Of a DNA stretch of 64,000 bases, positions 3,340 to 61,928 are shown piece by piece. The position numbers and the translations under genes were made by a program. The notes beneath the pieces were generated by a model. The model saw only the letters and a program-made list of their open reading frames with translations, ran no database searches and had not been told where the DNA came from. How positions within the stretch are numbered: position 1 is the stretch's first letter; each line of letters starts with the position of its first letter. The DNA comes from Escherichia phage vB-EcoP-XT18. The stretch lies in the sequence record OR757434.1. One strand, given 5' to 3'.

Positions 3340-3546
3340 ATGACTGAAGAAGAGTTCCAAGAACTGAAAGGTTTGACTACCGAGGTTCAATTAAAAGCTA
3401 TGACATTTGGTCGAGCATGTCATCAATTTGATATATGCGTCGAAAGCAGTAAAGAAGCTTGTAAGAGCTATATGGATAAGAAGCACCTTGAATGGGGTAA
3501 AGCCTCTAACGATCTTTATAACTATATGAAGGGTTTAGTAAAATGA
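3340..3546 (+). CDS. hypothetical protein
   Basis: ORF in operon context. Confidence 0.4.
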   Translation: MTEEEFQELKGLTTEVQLKAMTFGRACHQFDICVESSKEACKSYMDKKHLEWGKASNDLYNYMKGLVK

Positions 3547-3740
3547 AAAAGTGGATTGTTCGTGTACATGATGATATGACTGGAGACTTGGTAGCTGTAG
3601 ATTTTATTAACACTCGAGAACACGCCCGTAGGGTCAAAAACCAATACAAGTCTACTTTTAGACTCAATAAGGTTACAATAGGAAAAGCTATTGTGAATAA
3701 CGAAGGTGCTCTTTTTGCCAACAGCAAGGTTTATTATTAA
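3543..3740 (+). CDS. small basic protein, paralog family A member 1
   Basis: shares W..V...TR.EAR..KK...VYY pattern with 3740-3949, 3959-4159 and 6501-6710. Confidence 0.45.
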   Translation: MKKWIVRVHDDMTGDLVAVDFINTREHARRVKNQYKSTFRLNKVTIGKAIVNNEGALFANSKVYY

Positions 3741-3949
3741 TGAGACCAATCACTATGAGACAGTTTTGGTTAGCAAAGATTAAGTGGGCATCAGGTGGTA
3801 TGACTATGACTGCACTTCCTACTCGTCAACAGGCTCGAGATTTTAAAAAGACTATGCTTACTGGTGACGTGGTCAATAGTATCAGTATCCATAAGGCCAA
3901 GGAGTATTCTTCTGGTCGTGTTTATATCAGCGGAAAGGTACATTACTAA
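3740..3949 (+). CDS. small basic protein, paralog family A member 2
   Basis: paralog pattern, ends VHY. Confidence 0.45.
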   Translation: MRPITMRQFWLAKIKWASGGMTMTALPTRQQARDFKKTMLTGDVVNSISIHKAKEYSSGRVYISGKVHY

Positions 3950-26260: not shown

Positions 26261-26269
26261 TATACATTA
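26261..26269 (-). promoter_or_regulatory. TAATGTATA, putative phage-sigma-dependent late promoter
   Basis: minus strand reads CTATAATGTATATAG about 35 nt upstream of the 26222 ATG. Confidence 0.45.
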
Positions 26270-37496: not shown

Positions 37497-39569
37497 TCAT
37501 ATCAATCCATAGATGATGTTGTGAAGAACACACCCCCCAACTGCGCCACCTATGTTGAAATTAATTTCAGCCTTACTGGACCCTGGAGGAACTGAATCAA
37601 TAACAGCATAGAAACTGAACGAGTTGTTACTAGGTATGTAATATCCAATAGACTCAGAAACTGCATTACCTGCTGAATCTAGAAACCTAATAGATGCTAG
37701 TGTAGTGGTTGTATTCTTAGCCCAAAAACCAAACTGAAAGTATCTTCCGGGATGACACTCACTCACTGATTGGGTGAAGTTTGCCGAGCTAGTCGTATCT
37801 GGGACACCAAAAGAGAATGATGTGTTAAACATAGGAGACGAACTCGGAACATCATTGGGTTGAGAAACTGACACTACCCCTGATCCTGTTTGACTAAATG
37901 TCCAGTTAGATGTATTTAAGAATTGCCCGGAACCATTACTAAGACTATTAATGTAAGGGCTTACAATAGATCCAAGATCCCACCTACTTAAGACAAAACC
38001 AGCTCTAGGGTAACATCCGTTAGACACAACTCTCTTACTATCACCGCCGATGAGTTGGCGAGTAGGGAAACCAGTGGCTAGAGTATTGTTGCCATACAGA
38101 GGTAGAGAGCAGTTTGTCAGAGAAACAAAACCATCCCCATTACTTACTATAGGGACAGAACTAAAACCTACAGGGACCAAAATTGTCGAATCTTTTATGC
38201 TCAATCTCGAACTACCATTAACAGAAAAAGAAACAAAAGACTGATCCGGTTGATACTCAATGTTCCCATTAGAAAAAACAACTGTGGCGTTGTCTGTCAT
38301 TATAATGGTTGGGTCAAAATATCCAGACTTTTTCCCAGCAGGAAGTGAACACGTATCAAAGATGAATTGTCCATTCTCAAAAGTAAAAGGTCCTCCGTTA
38401 TCCACGCACCAGCAGTGATTGAACTTTATAACTTCTCCAGAGTTCGCTCTTGATTTAAAAACAACCGTGTCCGTAAAGCTTCTACTTATTGCACATTTGT
38501 CAAAAAGGATCCTATATGAATTATCAAGGAATTCAAGACCAGCTGTTGAGATAAAACCACAATTTTCTATCCGAACTTCCGACACCTCCCCACTATCAGT
38601 CCCTCCAATTACAACCTTTCTGGCACCTAGACCAACAAAGGACACTCCTGATATCTTAGCTGTTGAAGAAATCGAATCTCTAAGCCCATAATCTGTGTTT
38701 GAATTTATAATCTTCAAGAAATATTGACCTGTTGCTCCAGCCCCTTCCTGAAGCTTACAATTATTATAGCCTATCAAGGCTCCTTTAGAAACGTCAATAG
38801 CTATCTCAGATAATACGGATCCAGAAGTTGGAACTATACAATCGTAACCAGAGGAGTTCACTTTGTTGATATAAACAGCAATATCCCCGCTGCCAGTGTA
38901 GCCTGCATCAAACACAGAAGCTTCTCCAGAGAATAGCAACCTCTTCCATTTTACAGAAACTCCACTGAAAACCACCACCCCATCAGCTGTTTCTGAATTG
39001 TCTATTGCTACAAACACACCCCCTCCCATATTAGCCCCTTCGACATAAGATCTTACAAAGACTTTGTCACCTACAGAAGCTCCCTCTAAGGTCTGAAGTT
39101 GTTCAATAGAGGGGAGATCTCCAATAAGATTAAACCCTGTAGGCAGGCCTAGTTCTTGAGAGACCACATTAGATACCTGACCTAATGCCACTGCTTCGTC
39201 ACTCTCAACGGCGTTTGGTATACGTATAGGTTGAGAAAAAGTTACCTTATTTGTCATCGAAGTAATATCTGAGTTAGCCCCACTCTTAGCCGCAACCAGT
39301 GCGAGCCTTGCCGTGTCCGGAGAAGAGGCTCCTGTACCACCTTTCGAAATAGGAACAATATTTTCTACAGAAACATCACCTAATCCTAAATTAGATCTAG
39401 CAATAGTAGTATTAATTGCTCCTGTACCACCTTTCGAAATAGGAACAATATTTTCTACAGAAACATCACCTAATCCTAAATTAGATCTAGCAATAGTAGT
39501 ATTAATTGCTCCTGTACCACCTTTCGAAATAGGAACAGGCTCCTGTACCACCTTTCGAAATAGGAACAA
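37497..39569 (-). CDS. tail fibre, C-terminal portion (gene appears split by a frameshift in the repeat array)
   Basis: begins with identical 30-aa tail-fibre repeats (SKGGTGAINTTIARSNLGLG); overlaps the upstream ORF by 68 nt. Confidence 0.6.
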   Translation of the reverse strand: MFLFRKVVQEPVPISKGGTGAINTTIARSNLGLGDVSVENIVPISKGGTGAINTTIARSNLGLGDVSVENIVPISKGGTGASSPDTARLALVAAKSGANSDITSMTNKVTFSQPIRIPNAVESDEAVALGQVSNVVSQELGLPTGFNLIGDLPSIEQLQTLEGASVGDKVFVRSYVEGANMGGGVFVAIDNSETADGVVVFSGVSVKWKRLLFSGEASVFDAGYTGSGDIAVYINKVNSSGYDCIVPTSGSVLSEIAIDVSKGALIGYNNCKLQEGAGATGQYFLKIINSNTDYGLRDSISSTAKISGVSFVGLGARKVVIGGTDSGEVSEVRIENCGFISTAGLEFLDNSYRILFDKCAISRSFTDTVVFKSRANSGEVIKFNHCWCVDNGGPFTFENGQFIFDTCSLPAGKKSGYFDPTIIMTDNATVVFSNGNIEYQPDQSFVSFSVNGSSRLSIKDSTILVPVGFSSVPIVSNGDGFVSLTNCSLPLYGNNTLATGFPTRQLIGGDSKRVVSNGCYPRAGFVLSRWDLGSIVSPYINSLSNGSGQFLNTSNWTFSQTGSGVVSVSQPNDVPSSSPMFNTSFSFGVPDTTSSANFTQSVSECHPGRYFQFGFWAKNTTTTLASIRFLDSAGNAVSESIGYYIPSNNSFSFYAVIDSVPPGSSKAEINFNIGGAVGGCVLHNIIYGLI

Positions 39570-39701
39570 TATTTTCTACAGAAACATCACCTAATCCTAA
39601 ATTAGATCTAGCAATAGTAGTATTAATTGCTCCTGTACCACCTTTCGAAATAGGAACAATATTTTCTACAGAAACATCACCTAATCCTAAATTAGATCTA
39701 G
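39328..39701 (-). repeat. perfect 90-bp tandem repeat array (about 4 full units plus a 31-nt partial unit) inside the tail-fibre gene
   Basis: units at 39328, 39418, 39539 and 39629; truncated 30-nt unit plus one G at 39508-39538. Confidence 0.85.
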
Positions 39702-47356: not shown

Positions 47357-48898
47357 TTAGTAGCTCTGATTCCATCTGCTTACGTTTGCCTCATACAAAG
47401 AAGCGCTTCCGTAGCTAACATCATGCTTAGAGCGACCACGATGTGTAACAGAGCACGCTGAATAGCGCATTGCATCCATTAAGTCATCATGTTCTTTAAT
47501 AATCTTACCAACCTTACGGTGATATCTAGCTTTCTCTTCGAATAGCTTAGCGTTAGCGGCTGTGTTAAAGACTTTAAAGCGTCCACTCATCATTCTTTCT
47601 CGGATATCTGTGATTCCCGGTTCTACAAAGAAGTTCTTTTTACCATCCATTCCAATTTTGTTGTAGAAGGTCTCACTCTGTACGTTAACTCCTGCATTCT
47701 TATAGAATTGAGCAACAGATGAGCCACTACCTTTCTCAGTATTGTCCGCATCATGCGGTAGGATGACAGGAATCCACTGACCACGACCATTAATAGCTGG
47801 AGCATGATACACTGGAGTAAAGCCACCTTCTTTATATGAGTCGTAAACATAGATAGTATCCGTGTTTGCATCGTAAGCTGTCCAAACAGCAGCAGTTGGG
47901 TGATCAATACCAATATCAATTGCACAGACACGTTTCCACGTATCAGGAATTTCGAATGGTTCACATTTAATTGTGTCATCCGATACATCATATATCAAAC
48001 CACTTCCTAACAATGGCATACCTTTTGAACGCATCTCTAACTGCCACGCTGGAATACCTTCAGTCATATCTTTTATATCTTGGTCAGTGATGTGTCCACC
48101 TAGGTCTGCATGAGCATCCCACCAAGAAGCATTCTGGAAATACAGAGAACCTGTGTTCTCATCTCCTTCACCTTTCATAAATTTATCTACCAGTTCAGTT
48201 AAACCGTTCTCTGGTGTAGCTGTAATTGTAACTAGACCTTTAGTTGTGAGTGTACGTGTGACGCACTGTGCGAATATAGCCATAGACTCGTATGGATCTT
48301 CTTCGTCTAACCAAATGTAGTCAACTGTTGCACCCATCAATGTGTGTTCACCCTGTTGGGTTGAACGGAATTCTAATGTACTTAAACCGTCAAACTCTCC
48401 TCTCTCATTTTGATGTTTGATTTGTACGATTTGAAGTTTGTTACCATCTCGTTCTATCGTATCAATGACGATAGCATCACGAGGAATGACACCTGTCCCT
48501 AATAAATTTGTATCCTTTCCGATAGGTGTACCAAACAATTCCTTTTGCAATACTTTCCTTGTGGAATCCCCTGTAATACCAACTGCCCATGCTAAGATAG
48601 GTCTTTTAAATTTATATCCTGTCCACCAAGTTGGGTAGCGACCTGTGACATGACAAGCAAACTCGTATGCCTCGCTATAAGATTTACCAACACGGTTCGC
48701 TGCACACAAGAATCTAAAGCGATGCTTCAATCCTGCTGCATAAAATTTCTTTTGGAAGTCATACGCCTTGAAAGACAAAATCTTATTATACTTCCTCCAT
48801 TGGTCACGCTCTTTCAACATATTCAATAGTGCTTTCTTTTCGTCTACACTAAGGTTGTTACCAGTTAGAGCTTCATAAATTTGTTTATCTAATGACAT
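47357..48898 (-). CDS. terminase large subunit
   Basis: Walker A-like AANRVGKS; size and position upstream of the portal. Confidence 0.75.
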   Translation of the reverse strand: MSLDKQIYEALTGNNLSVDEKKALLNMLKERDQWRKYNKILSFKAYDFQKKFYAAGLKHRFRFLCAANRVGKSYSEAYEFACHVTGRYPTWWTGYKFKRPILAWAVGITGDSTRKVLQKELFGTPIGKDTNLLGTGVIPRDAIVIDTIERDGNKLQIVQIKHQNERGEFDGLSTLEFRSTQQGEHTLMGATVDYIWLDEEDPYESMAIFAQCVTRTLTTKGLVTITATPENGLTELVDKFMKGEGDENTGSLYFQNASWWDAHADLGGHITDQDIKDMTEGIPAWQLEMRSKGMPLLGSGLIYDVSDDTIKCEPFEIPDTWKRVCAIDIGIDHPTAAVWTAYDANTDTIYVYDSYKEGGFTPVYHAPAINGRGQWIPVILPHDADNTEKGSGSSVAQFYKNAGVNVQSETFYNKIGMDGKKNFFVEPGITDIRERMMSGRFKVFNTAANAKLFEEKARYHRKVGKIIKEHDDLMDAMRYSACSVTHRGRSKHDVSYGSASLYEANVSRWNQSY

Positions 48899-49059: not shown

Positions 49060-49533
49060 TTAACTCTCGTCCGCTTCCTCCCCCTTTTCAGCGTCCTCAG
49101 AGTTGTCTTCTTCTGGAGGCATAACGTCGATACCAAGTGCTCCAGTCAAGAAGTCCTTGATTTGTGCATTCAATGATTCTTCGTTAATTACATTCTCTTC
49201 CTCAATCTTAACTTCAACAGAGGCCGCCTTAGGATATACCAGATCTGCAACTTTTGATGCAGCCTTGAATCTAAGATCAGGTGGAATATTAGGATCTTCG
49301 TAAATTTGAATTAACACTTCATCAGGAGACAAATGACTTGCAGCAACACGGTCCAACATTAATTGTGTCAGTTTACCTCTACTACCTCTGGGTCGTCCGA
49401 ATTTATTTCCCTTTTGAAACTTCCCATTGCTTGGGTTCATACCACGGCCTTCAAGTTCTTCCGTTACTCCGGGTAATCTTCCTGTAATCTCAGCTACCTG
49501 TGCAGGTGTGAGTTCTCCGTTTTCTCCAAACAT
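49060..49533 (-). CDS. putative terminase small subunit
   Basis: directly upstream of the large subunit; basic GNKFGRPRGSRGK segment and acidic C-terminus. Confidence 0.4.
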   Translation of the reverse strand: MFGENGELTPAQVAEITGRLPGVTEELEGRGMNPSNGKFQKGNKFGRPRGSRGKLTQLMLDRVAASHLSPDEVLIQIYEDPNIPPDLRFKAASKVADLVYPKAASVEVKIEEENVINEESLNAQIKDFLTGALGIDVMPPEEDNSEDAEKGEEADES

Positions 49534-49555
49534 TTTATACTCCTTCTACATTATC

Positions 49556-50222: not shown

Positions 50223-50469
50223 CTGTCTCTCCCTTGCTGTAATCTTTATACGTTTCTACTTTGTAAGTGCAGAATGCTCTAAAGAAGAGCCAACCTAAGC
50301 TACTCACATCAATGGTAATATCGAAATCTGTTTCATCATCTAGGTCAACAAGACGACCTAAGCATGTAGCTTCCATCCCATCTTCAGAGTCACTATTGAC
50401 TACGAAAGCGTATGTCTCCGTTCTGAACCGAGGCACTATCTCTGATAAAAAGTCTAATACTAAATTCAT
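50215..50469 (-). CDS. hypothetical acidic protein
   Basis: first ORF of the minus-strand operon, with AGGAG RBS. Confidence 0.45.
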   Translation of the reverse strand: MNLVLDFLSEIVPRFRTETYAFVVNSDSEDGMEATCLGRLVDLDDETDFDITIDVSSLGWLFFRAFCTYKVETYKDYSKGETDE

Positions 50470-50495
50470 AACTCTTCTCCTCTGAATAAGAGTAT

Positions 50496-50622
50496 AAAGG
50501 GCTAGTCATATCTAACCCGTAAAGGCCACGTCATCAAAGATGACTACCTCATACTAACAACCCGTGTACTCTGAAGTAAAGGGCATGTCATAAAGGCACC
50601 CTCATGTTAAGGCCATGTCATT
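50496..50622. repeat. four iteron-like direct repeats, AAAGGSCAYGTCAT
   Basis: copies at about 50496, 50521, 50578 and 50608, just upstream of the late operon. Confidence 0.6.
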
Positions 50623-51009
50623 AGTCATACTTGATACATCTTGCTATAGAGAAGCAGATGAATAAACAGAAGACTATTACTAACCAAAAGATTATTTCCA
50701 TTAAGACCTATCCACCCACGTACTGAATCTCAACTTACCACATTCCTTACACTTCCATGTTGATAGGTAGAGACCGTGTATTCTTTCATCCCCGTAAGCT
50801 TTACGAAGAAGGTAGTAATTGTGCTTACACTTCATCCGTCTAAATACTTTAATTAGATTCATTAAGTTCTCTCTTAAGCTTATATATAACAGTTCAAAAT
50901 TCTGATTTGACCGAGTGGGGCTAGGCCCTCTGCGGCGAATTGTTAAAAAGGGGGAGTCCTCAAATAAAAAATGGTTATTGGCAATGCCTTTACACCTTCT
51001 TCCACGTTC

Positions 51010-51450
51010 CAACCTTTCCCCGTGCCTACTCCCCGTAATTATTCCCCCGTGTATACTACCCAATACATTACCTACCCGTTTATTTAGTTCCCCTTTACTG
51101 AATGGATGAAAGGCTAGCACTGTATAGGCCAACTGATTAGTCTGCTAATAATGCCATTAATGATGGTCACCACTCCCCATAGTTTGAGTGTAAATAGTTT
51201 CAATAGTGATTGTTATGAGTGCAATAATGATGTATGTATTAATTAAGTGGATGATTGTGTTTCTTTTAATAATTTCTTTTAATTACTTTCTTTTTCAGCG
51301 TGCATGAGCGTAGCGAATGGTCTTTGATGTTTGAGTTATACAATTATTTAAGTGGTATATTATTACCGCACTATCTGGCAATGTTCCCCCGTGGTCTGTC
51401 CTGCGGTTGTATGTTCCCCGTCCTATAGAGATAGTAGAAATATTTTACCC
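51010..51450. repeat. dispersed YCCCCGT short repeats in an ORF-poor AT-rich region
   Basis: at least seven copies (51014, 51028, 51041, 51070, 51393, 51415, 51443). Confidence 0.45.
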
Positions 51451-51725
51451 GTAGGACTTGCTTTCTTTATTAAGAAGTAGTAAATTGTATTCATCGAAGC
51501 GAAGCAGTGATGCAAAGTAGCTAGATGGTAGTAAGCTCCATGAAGGATAATCGTCCTAAGTAGTGGAGAATGTTTAAAGATAAGGACTCTGCGATTGACT
51601 GGTGAAAGCTGGAACACTATCGAGTCAGTGAAGAGGCCAACTGAGCAATGGCCCTACGTATAAAAGAGAAATACGTGCTATCTTGTGAAACATGAAACCA
51701 AATACACATCAATGAGGATTCACAA

Positions 51726-52217
51726 ATGGCTAAGGTAATGCAGGTAGTTAATCTGGCAAGCTATGTACTGGTTGCCGCGATCGGTGTTAGTGCACTGGTA
51801 ACATCTCTTTCTGATAAGGCTATCGCTAGTCCAGCTCCTGCAACTAATGCCGCTGATGTTTTCGCTAGTTCCATTAATAAAGGTTGGATGATTTGCAACG
51901 GTGCGGATAGTGACGGCAATACCATCGCGTTAAAGATGAAATTTAGTAACGTAACAAATGAAGGCGTTCTCTTTCAATCTAAGACGTTGGACGGTCAGCC
52001 TAACAGTGATCTGGTACTCAAGCGTGCTGATAATGATGCGGATATGGTGACGTTCGGCACTGTACAACGTTATGAAGACGTTAAAGCTGTTACCAATCTT
52101 GTGAGCTACGGTCCGGTCAATGAGTCGATGATTGCTACCACTGTTTACAATAACGCTGATAATGCTGTTTACACTGTTCACGTTAATCTAGCCAACTGCA
52201 TCAAGGCCAGTAAATAA
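51726..52217 (+). CDS. secreted protein with signal peptide
   Basis: hydrophobic N-terminus followed by an A-x-A-like cleavage context. Confidence 0.45.
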   Translation: MAKVMQVVNLASYVLVAAIGVSALVTSLSDKAIASPAPATNAADVFASSINKGWMICNGADSDGNTIALKMKFSNVTNEGVLFQSKTLDGQPNSDLVLKRADNDADMVTFGTVQRYEDVKAVTNLVSYGPVNESMIATTVYNNADNAVYTVHVNLANCIKASK

Positions 52218-53159: not shown

Positions 53160-53534
53160 TTGATTACTATGTGGTTTATTAAATTCGTCGTTAAAACGGT
53201 TGTAGGCTTTTTTCTGGTTGTTCTTCTGTTGGGTGTCCTGCTATCAGCTATGGGTAGCGTTAAGGCTGCAACATTTTCCCCTGCTACGGTTGACGGCTTG
53301 CAATGTACCTACCTTGTAGAAAACTATTCGACTGGTAAAAAGTCACCTAAGGTTATTATTTTACATGTAAATGATTTCGAGCATGTACAATCATACGCTA
53401 AGACTATTCAGCTAGTGAATGAAACCACTGGCAAACAAATCACGGTCGATCACTTGATGCGCTCGTCGTTGACGCTCTTTGACGAGTCTATGAATGAAGT
53501 AGAATCCGGTAACGGTCAGTGTGTAAATCCTTAA
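53160..53534 (+). CDS. membrane-anchored or secreted protein
   Basis: N-terminal hydrophobic segment. Confidence 0.4.
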   Translation: MITMWFIKFVVKTVVGFFLVVLLLGVLLSAMGSVKAATFSPATVDGLQCTYLVENYSTGKKSPKVIILHVNDFEHVQSYAKTIQLVNETTGKQITVDHLMRSSLTLFDESMNEVESGNGQCVNP

Positions 53535-61853: not shown

Positions 61854-61928
61854 GTCCCTATAGTTAAAAGGATATAACAGATTTCTTCTAAAAATCCATT
61901 CTAGGTTCGAGTCCTAGTGGGGACGCCA
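61854..61928 (+). tRNA. tRNA-Arg (anticodon UCU) with encoded CCA
   Basis: hand-folded cloverleaf: 7-bp acceptor stem with one G-U, D arm GTTA/TAAC, anticodon stem GATTT/AAATC with loop CTTCTAA, T arm CTAGG-TTCGAGT-CCTAG, discriminator G. Confidence 0.8.

Follow-up and report, generated by a model that had tools for sequence, protein, structure and literature searches.

The window analyzed here, a stretch of 64,000 nucleotides from Escherichia phage vB-EcoP-XT18 (sequence record OR757434.1), appears from homology to contain a genome-end junction, at which the 193-bp direct terminal repeat (DTR) of the genus Kuravirus is present as a single collapsed copy (probability about 0.93). The DTR itself is already known for the genus, from phiEco32 since 2008 and from about 30 phages since 2023 (PMC9965538), and is not a new feature. 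As an explanation of the region as a whole, a collapsed DTR junction that would be cut in the manner of T7 at YT/AGCC sites, with short repeats forming a putative binding-site array, is quite likely to be correct. A preliminary description of positions 50640-51725 (the flagged span; all positions are those of the window) had suggested, from the short repeats found there, a possible genome-end or packaging region, and this proposal is borne out by the homology of 50923-51115 to the 193-bp DTR of phiEco32.

Homology searches assign the flagged span and its surroundings to the phiEco32-like coliphages (genus Kuravirus, subfamily Gordonclarkvirinae); a 1.4-kb query matched 80 phage records, with the best match, phage XT73, at 97% over the whole query. 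The plus strand carries the genes of the window up to ~22 kb; the coding strand then switches to minus as far as 50469 and returns to plus at 51726, which makes the flagged span the divergent gap between two arms. The earlier placement of the region between a late operon and plus-strand genes agrees with this layout, as a minus-strand late/terminase arm and plus-strand genes flank the gap. The minus-strand neighbors are homologues of phiEco32 genes 4, 5, and 6, followed by the large terminase, in the same order as in phiEco32; the genes adjacent to the junction belong to PHROG families without known function (one labeled just "ABC transporter") and returned no Pfam hits. The early gene at 53160-53534 has a legacy "terminase" label in XT73 and phiEco32, which was set aside, being without Pfam support. 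The sole Rfam match in the whole window is a tRNA-Arg at 61854.

The genome-end assignment starts from the linear record of phiEco32, in which the first 193 nt are identical to the last 193 nt. On alignment to the reverse complement of the window, nt 1 and nt 193 of phiEco32 correspond to window 51115 and 50923, respectively, a stretch of exactly 193 bp:

50923-51115, minus strand: DTR homologue, single collapsed copy, located by alignment to both phiEco32 ends.

Beyond this stretch, one window flank runs on into the unique sequence of the phiEco32 right end and the opposite flank into that of its left end; because both flanks continue into the two ends of phiEco32, the window would hold the genome-end junction, with the terminal repeat present once, as in a circularized or collapsed assembly. 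Such a junction corresponds to the one between successive genomes in a replicating concatemer. No second DTR copy was found in the window, and a single mid-window copy is the expected picture where an assembly collapses the repeat. T7-like concatemers hold one repeat copy, and short-read assemblies place the repeat mid-contig (PMC10438801). The position of the DTR, between right-end early genes and left-end small genes and terminases, is also the same as in Kuravirus. From 51116 rightward come two conserved blocks that contain candidate host-type promoters, together with an AT-rich tract, and then the early genes. On the other side, from 50922 leftward, the small early gene(s) precede the late operon, which opens with the candidate small and the large terminase subunits. 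As compared with phiEco32, the early side of the window beyond ~51470, together with the first early gene, is of a different mosaic type.

Records of related phages point to the same ends. A search with the 193 bp recovered the DTR in 87 phage records at 85-100% identity, including SU10, Paul, and YF01; identity to the window is 100% in XT32, 97% in XT73, and 85% in phiEco32. Seven linear records (IMEP8, LAMP, Paul, WFI101126, YF01, SU10, and phiEco32; 10 accessions when RefSeq copies are included) have as their first base the one aligned to window 51115, and in several further linear records the start is one base later. The stretch is annotated as a direct terminal repeat in the Paul and YF01 records, and in those of phiEco32 and YF01 the full 193 bp is found twice, once at each end. 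The YF01 ends were mapped by whole-genome nanopore reads and the Paul ends by PhageTerm, and those of phiEco32 are also reported to have been mapped experimentally (PMC9965538); for SU10, the ends appeared as sharp drop-offs in 454 reads, and its authors deduced that they are blunt (PMC4281155). The preliminary description had named termini mapping elsewhere as grounds for giving up a genome-end role, and this is the case in no relative with mapped ends. Other packaging modes can be judged through the same relatives. Cos packaging, with complementary single-stranded ends and no duplication, is at odds with their full 193-bp ends and with the blunt ends of SU10, and pac/headful packaging, with permuted molecules and no fixed ends, is at odds with the one fixed start base given by independent records and methods.

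The DTR is crossed by a long minus-strand ORF (50701-51132) that had been dismissed as largely spurious. That judgment holds for its 5' two thirds, which run across the DTR and in relatives are broken by insertions, but not for its 3' 162 nt, which encode a conserved protein. Two small genes are present on this side of the repeat:

50701-50862, minus strand: 53-aa CxH...CxxC zinc-ribbon-like protein (PHROG 7696, E = 3e-16).
50621-50701, minus strand: 26-aa hydrophobic mini-ORF (MEIIFWLVIVFCLFICFSIARCIKYD), the start of which overlaps the zinc-ribbon gene stop.

The zinc-ribbon-like protein is 58% identical to its phiEco32 homologue and is annotated in XT73; its gene is the first inside the left genome end and corresponds to SU10 CDS1. 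Among the 12 phages compared, the mini-ORF occurs only in the window, SGF2, and TH38.

The edges of the repeat were compared in a junction alignment of the window with 11 relatives, including the distant Bas92 and Bas94 (13 rows, as phiEco32 contributes two end fragments). The DTR is 192-193 bp long in all 11-12 relatives despite identities of 80-100%, and 193 bp long in the window. Both of its boundaries fall in one register of one hexamer, CT/AGCC on the late strand (GGCTAG on the plus strand), where the slash marks the predicted cut:

51112-51117, minus strand: left-end boundary hexamer CT/AGCC (GGCT/AG on the plus strand), predicted cut 51115/51116.
50919-50924, minus strand: right-end boundary hexamer CT/AGCC, predicted cut 50922/50923.

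At the left boundary, 9 of 12 sequences have CT/AGCCTTTC, with the variants AT/AGCC in Bas91 and TH38, and also YF01, and CT/GGCC in MN03. At the right boundary, 10 of 12 have CT/AGCCCCA, with CC/AGCC in 172-1 and CT/AGGC in phiEco32; most phages share CT/AGCCCCAC there. We consider it moderately likely that YT/AGCC is the cleavage signal. A cut at the center of the CTAG palindrome would produce blunt ends, which would fit those deduced for SU10. The degeneracy of the boundary hexamer in some phages (the four variant forms above) is an observation that runs against a cleavage signal.

Within the DTR, conservation is concentrated in three blocks: the first eight bases, the stretch carrying four copies of the motif ACGGGK, and a CTCCCCCTTTTTA box:

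50944-50956, minus strand: C5T5A box, reading CTCCCCCTTTTTA on the late strand and located 21 nt from the predicted right-end cut.

In the conservation profile, the C5T5A box ranks among the most conserved blocks of the DTR, and it was also singled out in the papers on SU10 (PMC4281155) and YF01 (PMC9965538). The Kuravirus literature compared here, primary phiEco32 papers aside, contains no mention of a one-strand ACGGGK array or of the shared CT/AGCC hexamer.

The repeats that had drawn attention to the region were described as at least seven copies of YCCCCGT in two clusters. The clusters are present, but the count is not: exact YCCCCGT occurs six times in 50640-51725 (at 50789, 51017, 51030, 51044, 51386, and 51415), in every case on the plus strand. 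The true repeat unit appears to be the shorter CCCGT, or ACGGGK on the late strand, where the consensus is roughly YACGGGKR. In the gap (50470-51725), this core occurs 10 times on the plus strand and not at all on the minus strand, as compared with ~0.29 predicted from its frequency in the remainder of the window (Poisson P about 1e-12 for the clustering, in a post hoc test). The ten copies span 50516-51452, with 8 of the 10 inside the flagged span; four lie in the DTR, three in right-end unique DNA, and three on the left:

51017-51079, minus strand: DTR cluster of four ACGGGK (D4 51017-51023, D3 51030-51036, D2 51044-51050, D1 51074-51079), spacings 13, 14, and 29.
51386-51452, minus strand: right-end cluster of three ACGGGK (R1 51386-51392, R2 51415-51421, R3 51447-51452), spacings 29 and 31.
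50789-50795, minus strand: G1, an isolated ACGGGGA in the zinc-ribbon gene, within the codons for an invariant AYGDE.
50515-50565, minus strand: two ACGGGT, L1 (50560-50565) and L2 (50515-50520), just left of the flagged span.

L1 and L2 sit within a series of ATGAC(A/G)TGGCCTTTA-like units that occupies 50500-50640, and the conservation of G1 may stem from coding alone. The spacings of the two clusters (13, 14, 29, 29, and 31 bp) are not in phase with the helix, an observation that weighs against a packaging role for the repeats.

If the gap were ordinary intergenic DNA, the repeats would be a chance or compositional effect, and the count of YCCCCGT over the whole window is indeed not significant (10, as compared with 4.95 expected; 5 of 100 shuffles reach 10). 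The local clustering is nonetheless evident, with 6 of the 9 plus-strand copies of YCCCCGT inside 1.1 kb, as is the complete strand polarity. Moreover, all ten copies of the core occur at the same aligned positions in essentially all of the 11-12 relatives, and they persist there through divergence of the flanks and small shifts. D1-D4 are kept in 13 of 13 aligned sequences; in Bas92 and Bas94, D3 and D4 are displaced by 1-2 nt with the ACGGG core kept. In the right-end cluster, the copies persist while the intervening sequence differs completely between phage groups, and SGF2 and TH38 have a fourth copy. Together with the exact homology of the region to mapped genome ends, these data make a chance origin scarcely tenable. 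Conservation is also higher in columns of the motif (0.95) than in the remaining non-coding columns of the junction (0.83; P = 0.004). This difference, the conserved positions, and the retention of the motif through divergence and shift suggest that it is under selection as a DNA, or possibly RNA, element.

The layout of the array resembles that of T7, a likeness to the terminal-repeat motifs of T7-like phages that the preliminary description had remarked upon and that stands up to comparison. The left 700 bp of T7 contain 11 copies of CCTAAAG, on one strand only, of which three are inside the terminal repeat of 160 bp and the others beside it. T7 and Kuravirus thus share a short exact terminal repeat with unique ends, a 7-bp-class motif iterated on one strand inside and beside this repeat, and host-type early promoters (candidates, in the window) that point inward a few hundred bp from the early-gene end. 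The phage-encoded terminase that belongs to T7-type packaging is also present, clear for its large subunit and marginal for its small subunit (E = 0.018). The two systems nevertheless differ in several respects. Their junctions have no sequence similarity; T7 genes share a single orientation, whereas those of Kuravirus point away from the junction on either side; and Kuravirus has no phage RNA polymerase, relying on the host polymerase and the phage sigma factor gp36, whereas T7 has an RNA polymerase of its own. Processing of T7 concatemers is reported to depend on T7-specific promoters and signals near the ends. To our knowledge, the function of the T7 CCTAAAG arrays is unsettled, so that the analogy carries over layout rather than mechanism.

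It is mainly on this shared layout that a packaging role for the repeats can be argued. By analogy, the ACGGGK copies are most likely candidate binding sites for a phage protein that would mark or organize the genome ends. A function of the whole array in packaging or end recognition, as opposed to one in transcription or replication, is possible, at somewhat less than even odds.

The region is also a divergent promoter region, and the repeats might instead be transcriptional or leader-RNA elements, either regulator sites or 5'-leader motifs, in which case the genome-end identity would stand unchanged. The authors of the SU10 genome predict host-type promoters between the DTR and CDS1 and upstream of the rightmost gene. 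A scan of 50300-51900 with a strict host-type promoter consensus returned 0 sites, as compared with 5.3 expected in shuffles; the window lacks the TTGACA promoter of SU10 and is of a different mosaic type at its first early gene. A relaxed scan returned two candidates, and a third element was compared with gp36 promoters:

51353-51361, plus strand: candidate extended -10, TGgTATATT, directed toward the early arm, within a 93-98% conserved block.
51220-51228, plus strand: second candidate extended -10, TGcAATAAT, pointing into the early arm, in a highly conserved block.
51062-51070, minus strand: low-confidence match to the gp36 element, TAATGTATT, with GGAACTA 14 nt upstream.

The extended -10 sites are candidate early-arm promoters on the strength of their sequence, and R1-R3 lie 25-90 nt downstream of the one at 51353-51361. 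The gp36-like element is located in the DTR just upstream of D2-D4; its AATG is invariant in relatives, and the 14-nt spacing to its upstream element is the same as at two late promoters. A role in transcription or at the RNA level keeps some probability, since R1-R3 would lie in the early leader, and D2-D4 in a late-strand leader if the gp36-like element is real.

Other observations speak against this alternative. The three late promoters of SU10 correspond to TAATGTATA-type sites of the window at 26261, 41858, and 49545, and the SU10 authors list none at the position of the gp36-like element. In the window, the gp36 element is matched no more often than expected by chance, and little weight can for this reason be placed on TAATGTATT, which is retained only as a low-confidence candidate despite its suggestive spacing. 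A consensus RNA fold of the early leader from 11 phages contains two short hairpins whose pairs never vary, and so provides no covariation support, and searches of 50400-51800 against Rfam returned nothing at the gathering threshold or at E up to 1. A single motif would, in addition, have to work both as ACGGGG in late RNA and as CCCCGU in early RNA. The analogous CCTAAAG array of T7 is not known to be transcriptional. On balance, we regard a transcriptional or leader-RNA role for the repeats as unlikely.

The AT-rich tracts noted in the preliminary description are likewise present to the right of the DTR:

51200-51299, no strand: AT-rich tract, 24% GC, of differing length among relatives.
51260-51294: 13-bp tandem repeat TTTCTTTTAATWA x2.6, inside the AT-rich tract.

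This arrangement, in which short iterated motifs adjoin a tract of 24% GC with a 13-bp tandem repeat, would be compatible with a replication origin, the ACGGGK copies acting as iterons for an initiator and the AT-rich tract as an unwinding element; the cumulative GC skew also reaches its minimum at the junction region. The switch in skew, however, coincides with the switch in gene strand and is explained without an origin. Origins of the iteron type combine phased iterons of 17-22 bp, an AT element, and an initiator gene. Of these, the AT-rich tract alone is present: the units here are 7-8 bp long, the spacings listed above are out of helical phase, and no initiator-like gene is adjacent. Four of the copies, moreover, lie inside sequence with an established terminal-repeat role, and the AT tract varies in length among relatives. 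A replication origin at this site is very unlikely.

Returning to the packaging reading, the window encodes the large terminase subunit and a candidate for the small one on the late strand:

47357-48898, minus strand: large terminase subunit, 513 aa (Pfam Terminase_6N, 4.5e-15; Terminase_6C, 4.1e-14).
49060-49533, minus strand: candidate small terminase subunit, 157 aa, with PaP3-type profile matches.
49545-49553, minus strand: late promoter TAATGTAGA, just upstream of the small-terminase candidate, matching SU10 table S2.

The small-terminase candidate is 42-48% identical to counterparts in three more distant prolate podophages. When a profile of these four sequences was searched against the PDB, the two best-scoring structures were the PaP3-type small terminases 6w7t and 7joq, both with a marginal E = 0.018; a PDB search with the single sequence returned noise only. 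The YF01 paper obtained the same small-terminase result by HHpred. The "cos" 20-mer of the PaP3 small terminase was tried as a guide to the binding site and rejected, as the left 1.9 kb of the PaP3-like phage Delta does not contain it; the repeat of phage Delta, 182 bp long, is unrelated.

By analogy with T7-type phages, the terminase would recognize the junction on concatemeric DNA and cut at two YT/AGCC sites exactly 193 bp apart. DNA synthesis would then duplicate the DTR, so that each packaged genome would have it at both ends. A concatemer with one repeat per junction, duplicated in packaging, is also what previous authors deduced for Kuravirus (PMC4281155; PMC9965538). Since the right end of the genome harbors the early genes and the promoters that point inward, it is probably the first to enter the cell, and the left (terminase) end would be the one packaged first.

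Comparison with more distant prolate podophages suggests which of these elements are widespread. In Proteus phage 3H10_20 and Salmonella phage PKM.Hi.22.6 (Grimontviridae, C3-morphotype), the large terminase is ~60% and the small-terminase candidate 42-48% identical to those of the window. The equivalent divergent gap of 3H10_20 contains CT/AGCC, followed by CCCCCTTTTA-N18-CT/AGC 281 bp apart, with three copies of ACGTGAA between the sites, near the first of them, in place of ACGGGK. PKM.Hi.22.6 contains CCCCTTTTTA-N17-CTAGCCCC and no clear iterated array. In both phages, a C5T5A-like box stands 17-18 nt upstream of the CTAGC site. Grimontviridae thus differ from Kuravirus in their iterated motif, which is ACGTGAA or absent, and in their predicted repeat lengths. 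Proteus phage Privateer has been reported to have a "novel ends type". These two examples suggest, from sequence, that the arrangement of cut site and box may be older than the genus Kuravirus. Because the box is kept in the distant relatives and ACGGGK is not, the C5T5A box is the better candidate for the primary small-terminase site. The loss of ACGGGK from relatives whose small terminase is still 42-48% identical is also an observation against a packaging role for that motif.

A scan of IMG/VR for CCCCTTTTTA-N14-22-CTAGCC returned 67 hits, by a rough estimate not above the level expected by chance and mostly on contigs unlike Kuravirus in size, and was uninformative. Pantoea phage TacPo2, in which CTAGCC is followed by a C5T4 box, was considered and rejected, as its arrangement is not mappable onto the Kuravirus layout.

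A more speculative reading, and one that is somewhat unlikely to hold jointly in all its parts, is that prolate podophage families share a compact terminase code consisting of two direct YT/AGC(C) cuts, a C5T4-5A box, and a lineage-specific motif. The two cuts would set the length of the repeat, the box, 17-21 bp inside the right-hand cut, would be the dock of the small terminase, and the lineage motif would be ACGGGK in Kuravirus and ACGTGAA in Privateervirus. If such a code exists, the ends of Grimontviridae genomes would be predictable from sequence, and a terminal repeat of 281 bp is predicted at L087 3506-3786 in 3H10_20.

For this phage, the results imply that the assembly in the window is circularly permuted with a collapsed DTR. 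The true linear genome should begin at window 51115, reading downward, should have 50923-51115 at both ends, and should be 193 bp longer than the collapsed assembly. The annotation should also be corrected, in that the long ORF 50701-51132 is not real, while the 53-aa zinc-ribbon gene and the 26-aa membrane mini-ORF are. Current understanding of phage packaging is unchanged, and the main value of the finding is practical. Modest new details are that both boundaries share one hexamer, that the length is constant at 193 bp, and that the one-strand array of ACGGGK is conserved; they provide leads as to how the terminase recognizes and measures its cut sites, and the same details could help to place genome ends in related phage families.

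The stretch at positions 3504-3790 of Proteus phage 3H10_20 (MT740244; L087 coordinates) shares its architecture with the Kuravirus repeat, the 193-bp direct terminal repeat whose homologue lies in the window: a CT|AGCC site (3504-3509) is followed by three copies of ACGTGAA, and CCCCCTTTTA-N18-CT|AGC lies at 3757-3789, the two sites being 281 bp apart. This correspondence predicts, from sequence, a terminal repeat of 281 bp in 3H10_20; the ends of the genus to which this phage belongs have been reported in the literature as a "novel type." In Salmonella phage PKM.Hi.22.6 (OR053651), the arrangement CCCCTTTTTA-N17-CTAGCCCC at about L014 3265-3296 is much like the Kuravirus repeat at its inner end, and there are two alternative candidates for its partner site, ATAGCC about 230 bp upstream or CTAGCC 1.75 kb upstream (L014 1545).

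At the left end, the conserved zinc-ribbon ORF (window 50701-50862, minus strand) corresponds to positions 253-417 of phiEco32 (NC_010324), in a frame that agrees with the start of SU10 CDS1. Gene 1 of the phiEco32 record is annotated at 296-496, out of frame with this conserved ORF, and therefore looks mis-framed in the reference annotation. Two further features lie at this end:

Window 50621-50701, minus strand: strongly hydrophobic mini-ORF of 26 aa, its ATG overlapping the zinc-ribbon gene stop codon
Window 50500-50640, read on the minus strand: array of 5-6 ATGAC(A/G)TGGCCTTTA-like units, directly upstream of the gene-4 homologue

Because the 80-bp segment carrying the mini-ORF is restricted, among the 12 phages compared, to the window, SGF2, and TH38, the mini-ORF behaves like a small accessory insertion. 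The array contains the inverted repeat GTCATCtttGATGAC and shows no match to the consensus of the phage sigma factor gp36. A similar array, with units ATGACATGGCATG, occupies the equivalent position in Pantoea phage TacPo2 (about L084 6150-6250).

Within the structural arm, on the minus strand, we also observed a family of direct repeats at window 39232-39701, in which four copies, each about 169 nt long, overlap with a period of 90 nt (once 121 nt); it is probably a repeated protein domain.

Two features of the early side are as follows:

Window 51726-52217, plus strand: first early gene, 163 aa
Window 61854-61928, plus strand: tRNA-Arg (anticodon TCT), early/middle arm

Other Kuraviruses likewise carry a tRNA-Arg in the early/middle arm. 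Homologues of the early gene at 53160-53534 (plus strand) in XT73 and phiEco32 are labeled "terminase," which looks like a legacy mis-annotation; the protein has no match in Pfam.

About 30 nt downstream of the candidate early promoter, CCGTGGTCTGTCCTGCGG and then TTGTATGTTC (window 51389-51406, plus strand) make up a conserved hairpin-like element that overlaps R1, one of the ACGGGK repeat copies. The element may act as an attenuator or as a site for a protein; as the pairs of the predicted hairpin are invariant, they give no covariation signal either way. The first early gene matches the phiEco32 gp128 family (290 aa) only in the C-terminal part of that family (129-290), and over the 250 bp that precede the gene the sequence differs among three groups of relatives. 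Judged from these comparisons, the early arm is mosaic at its start.
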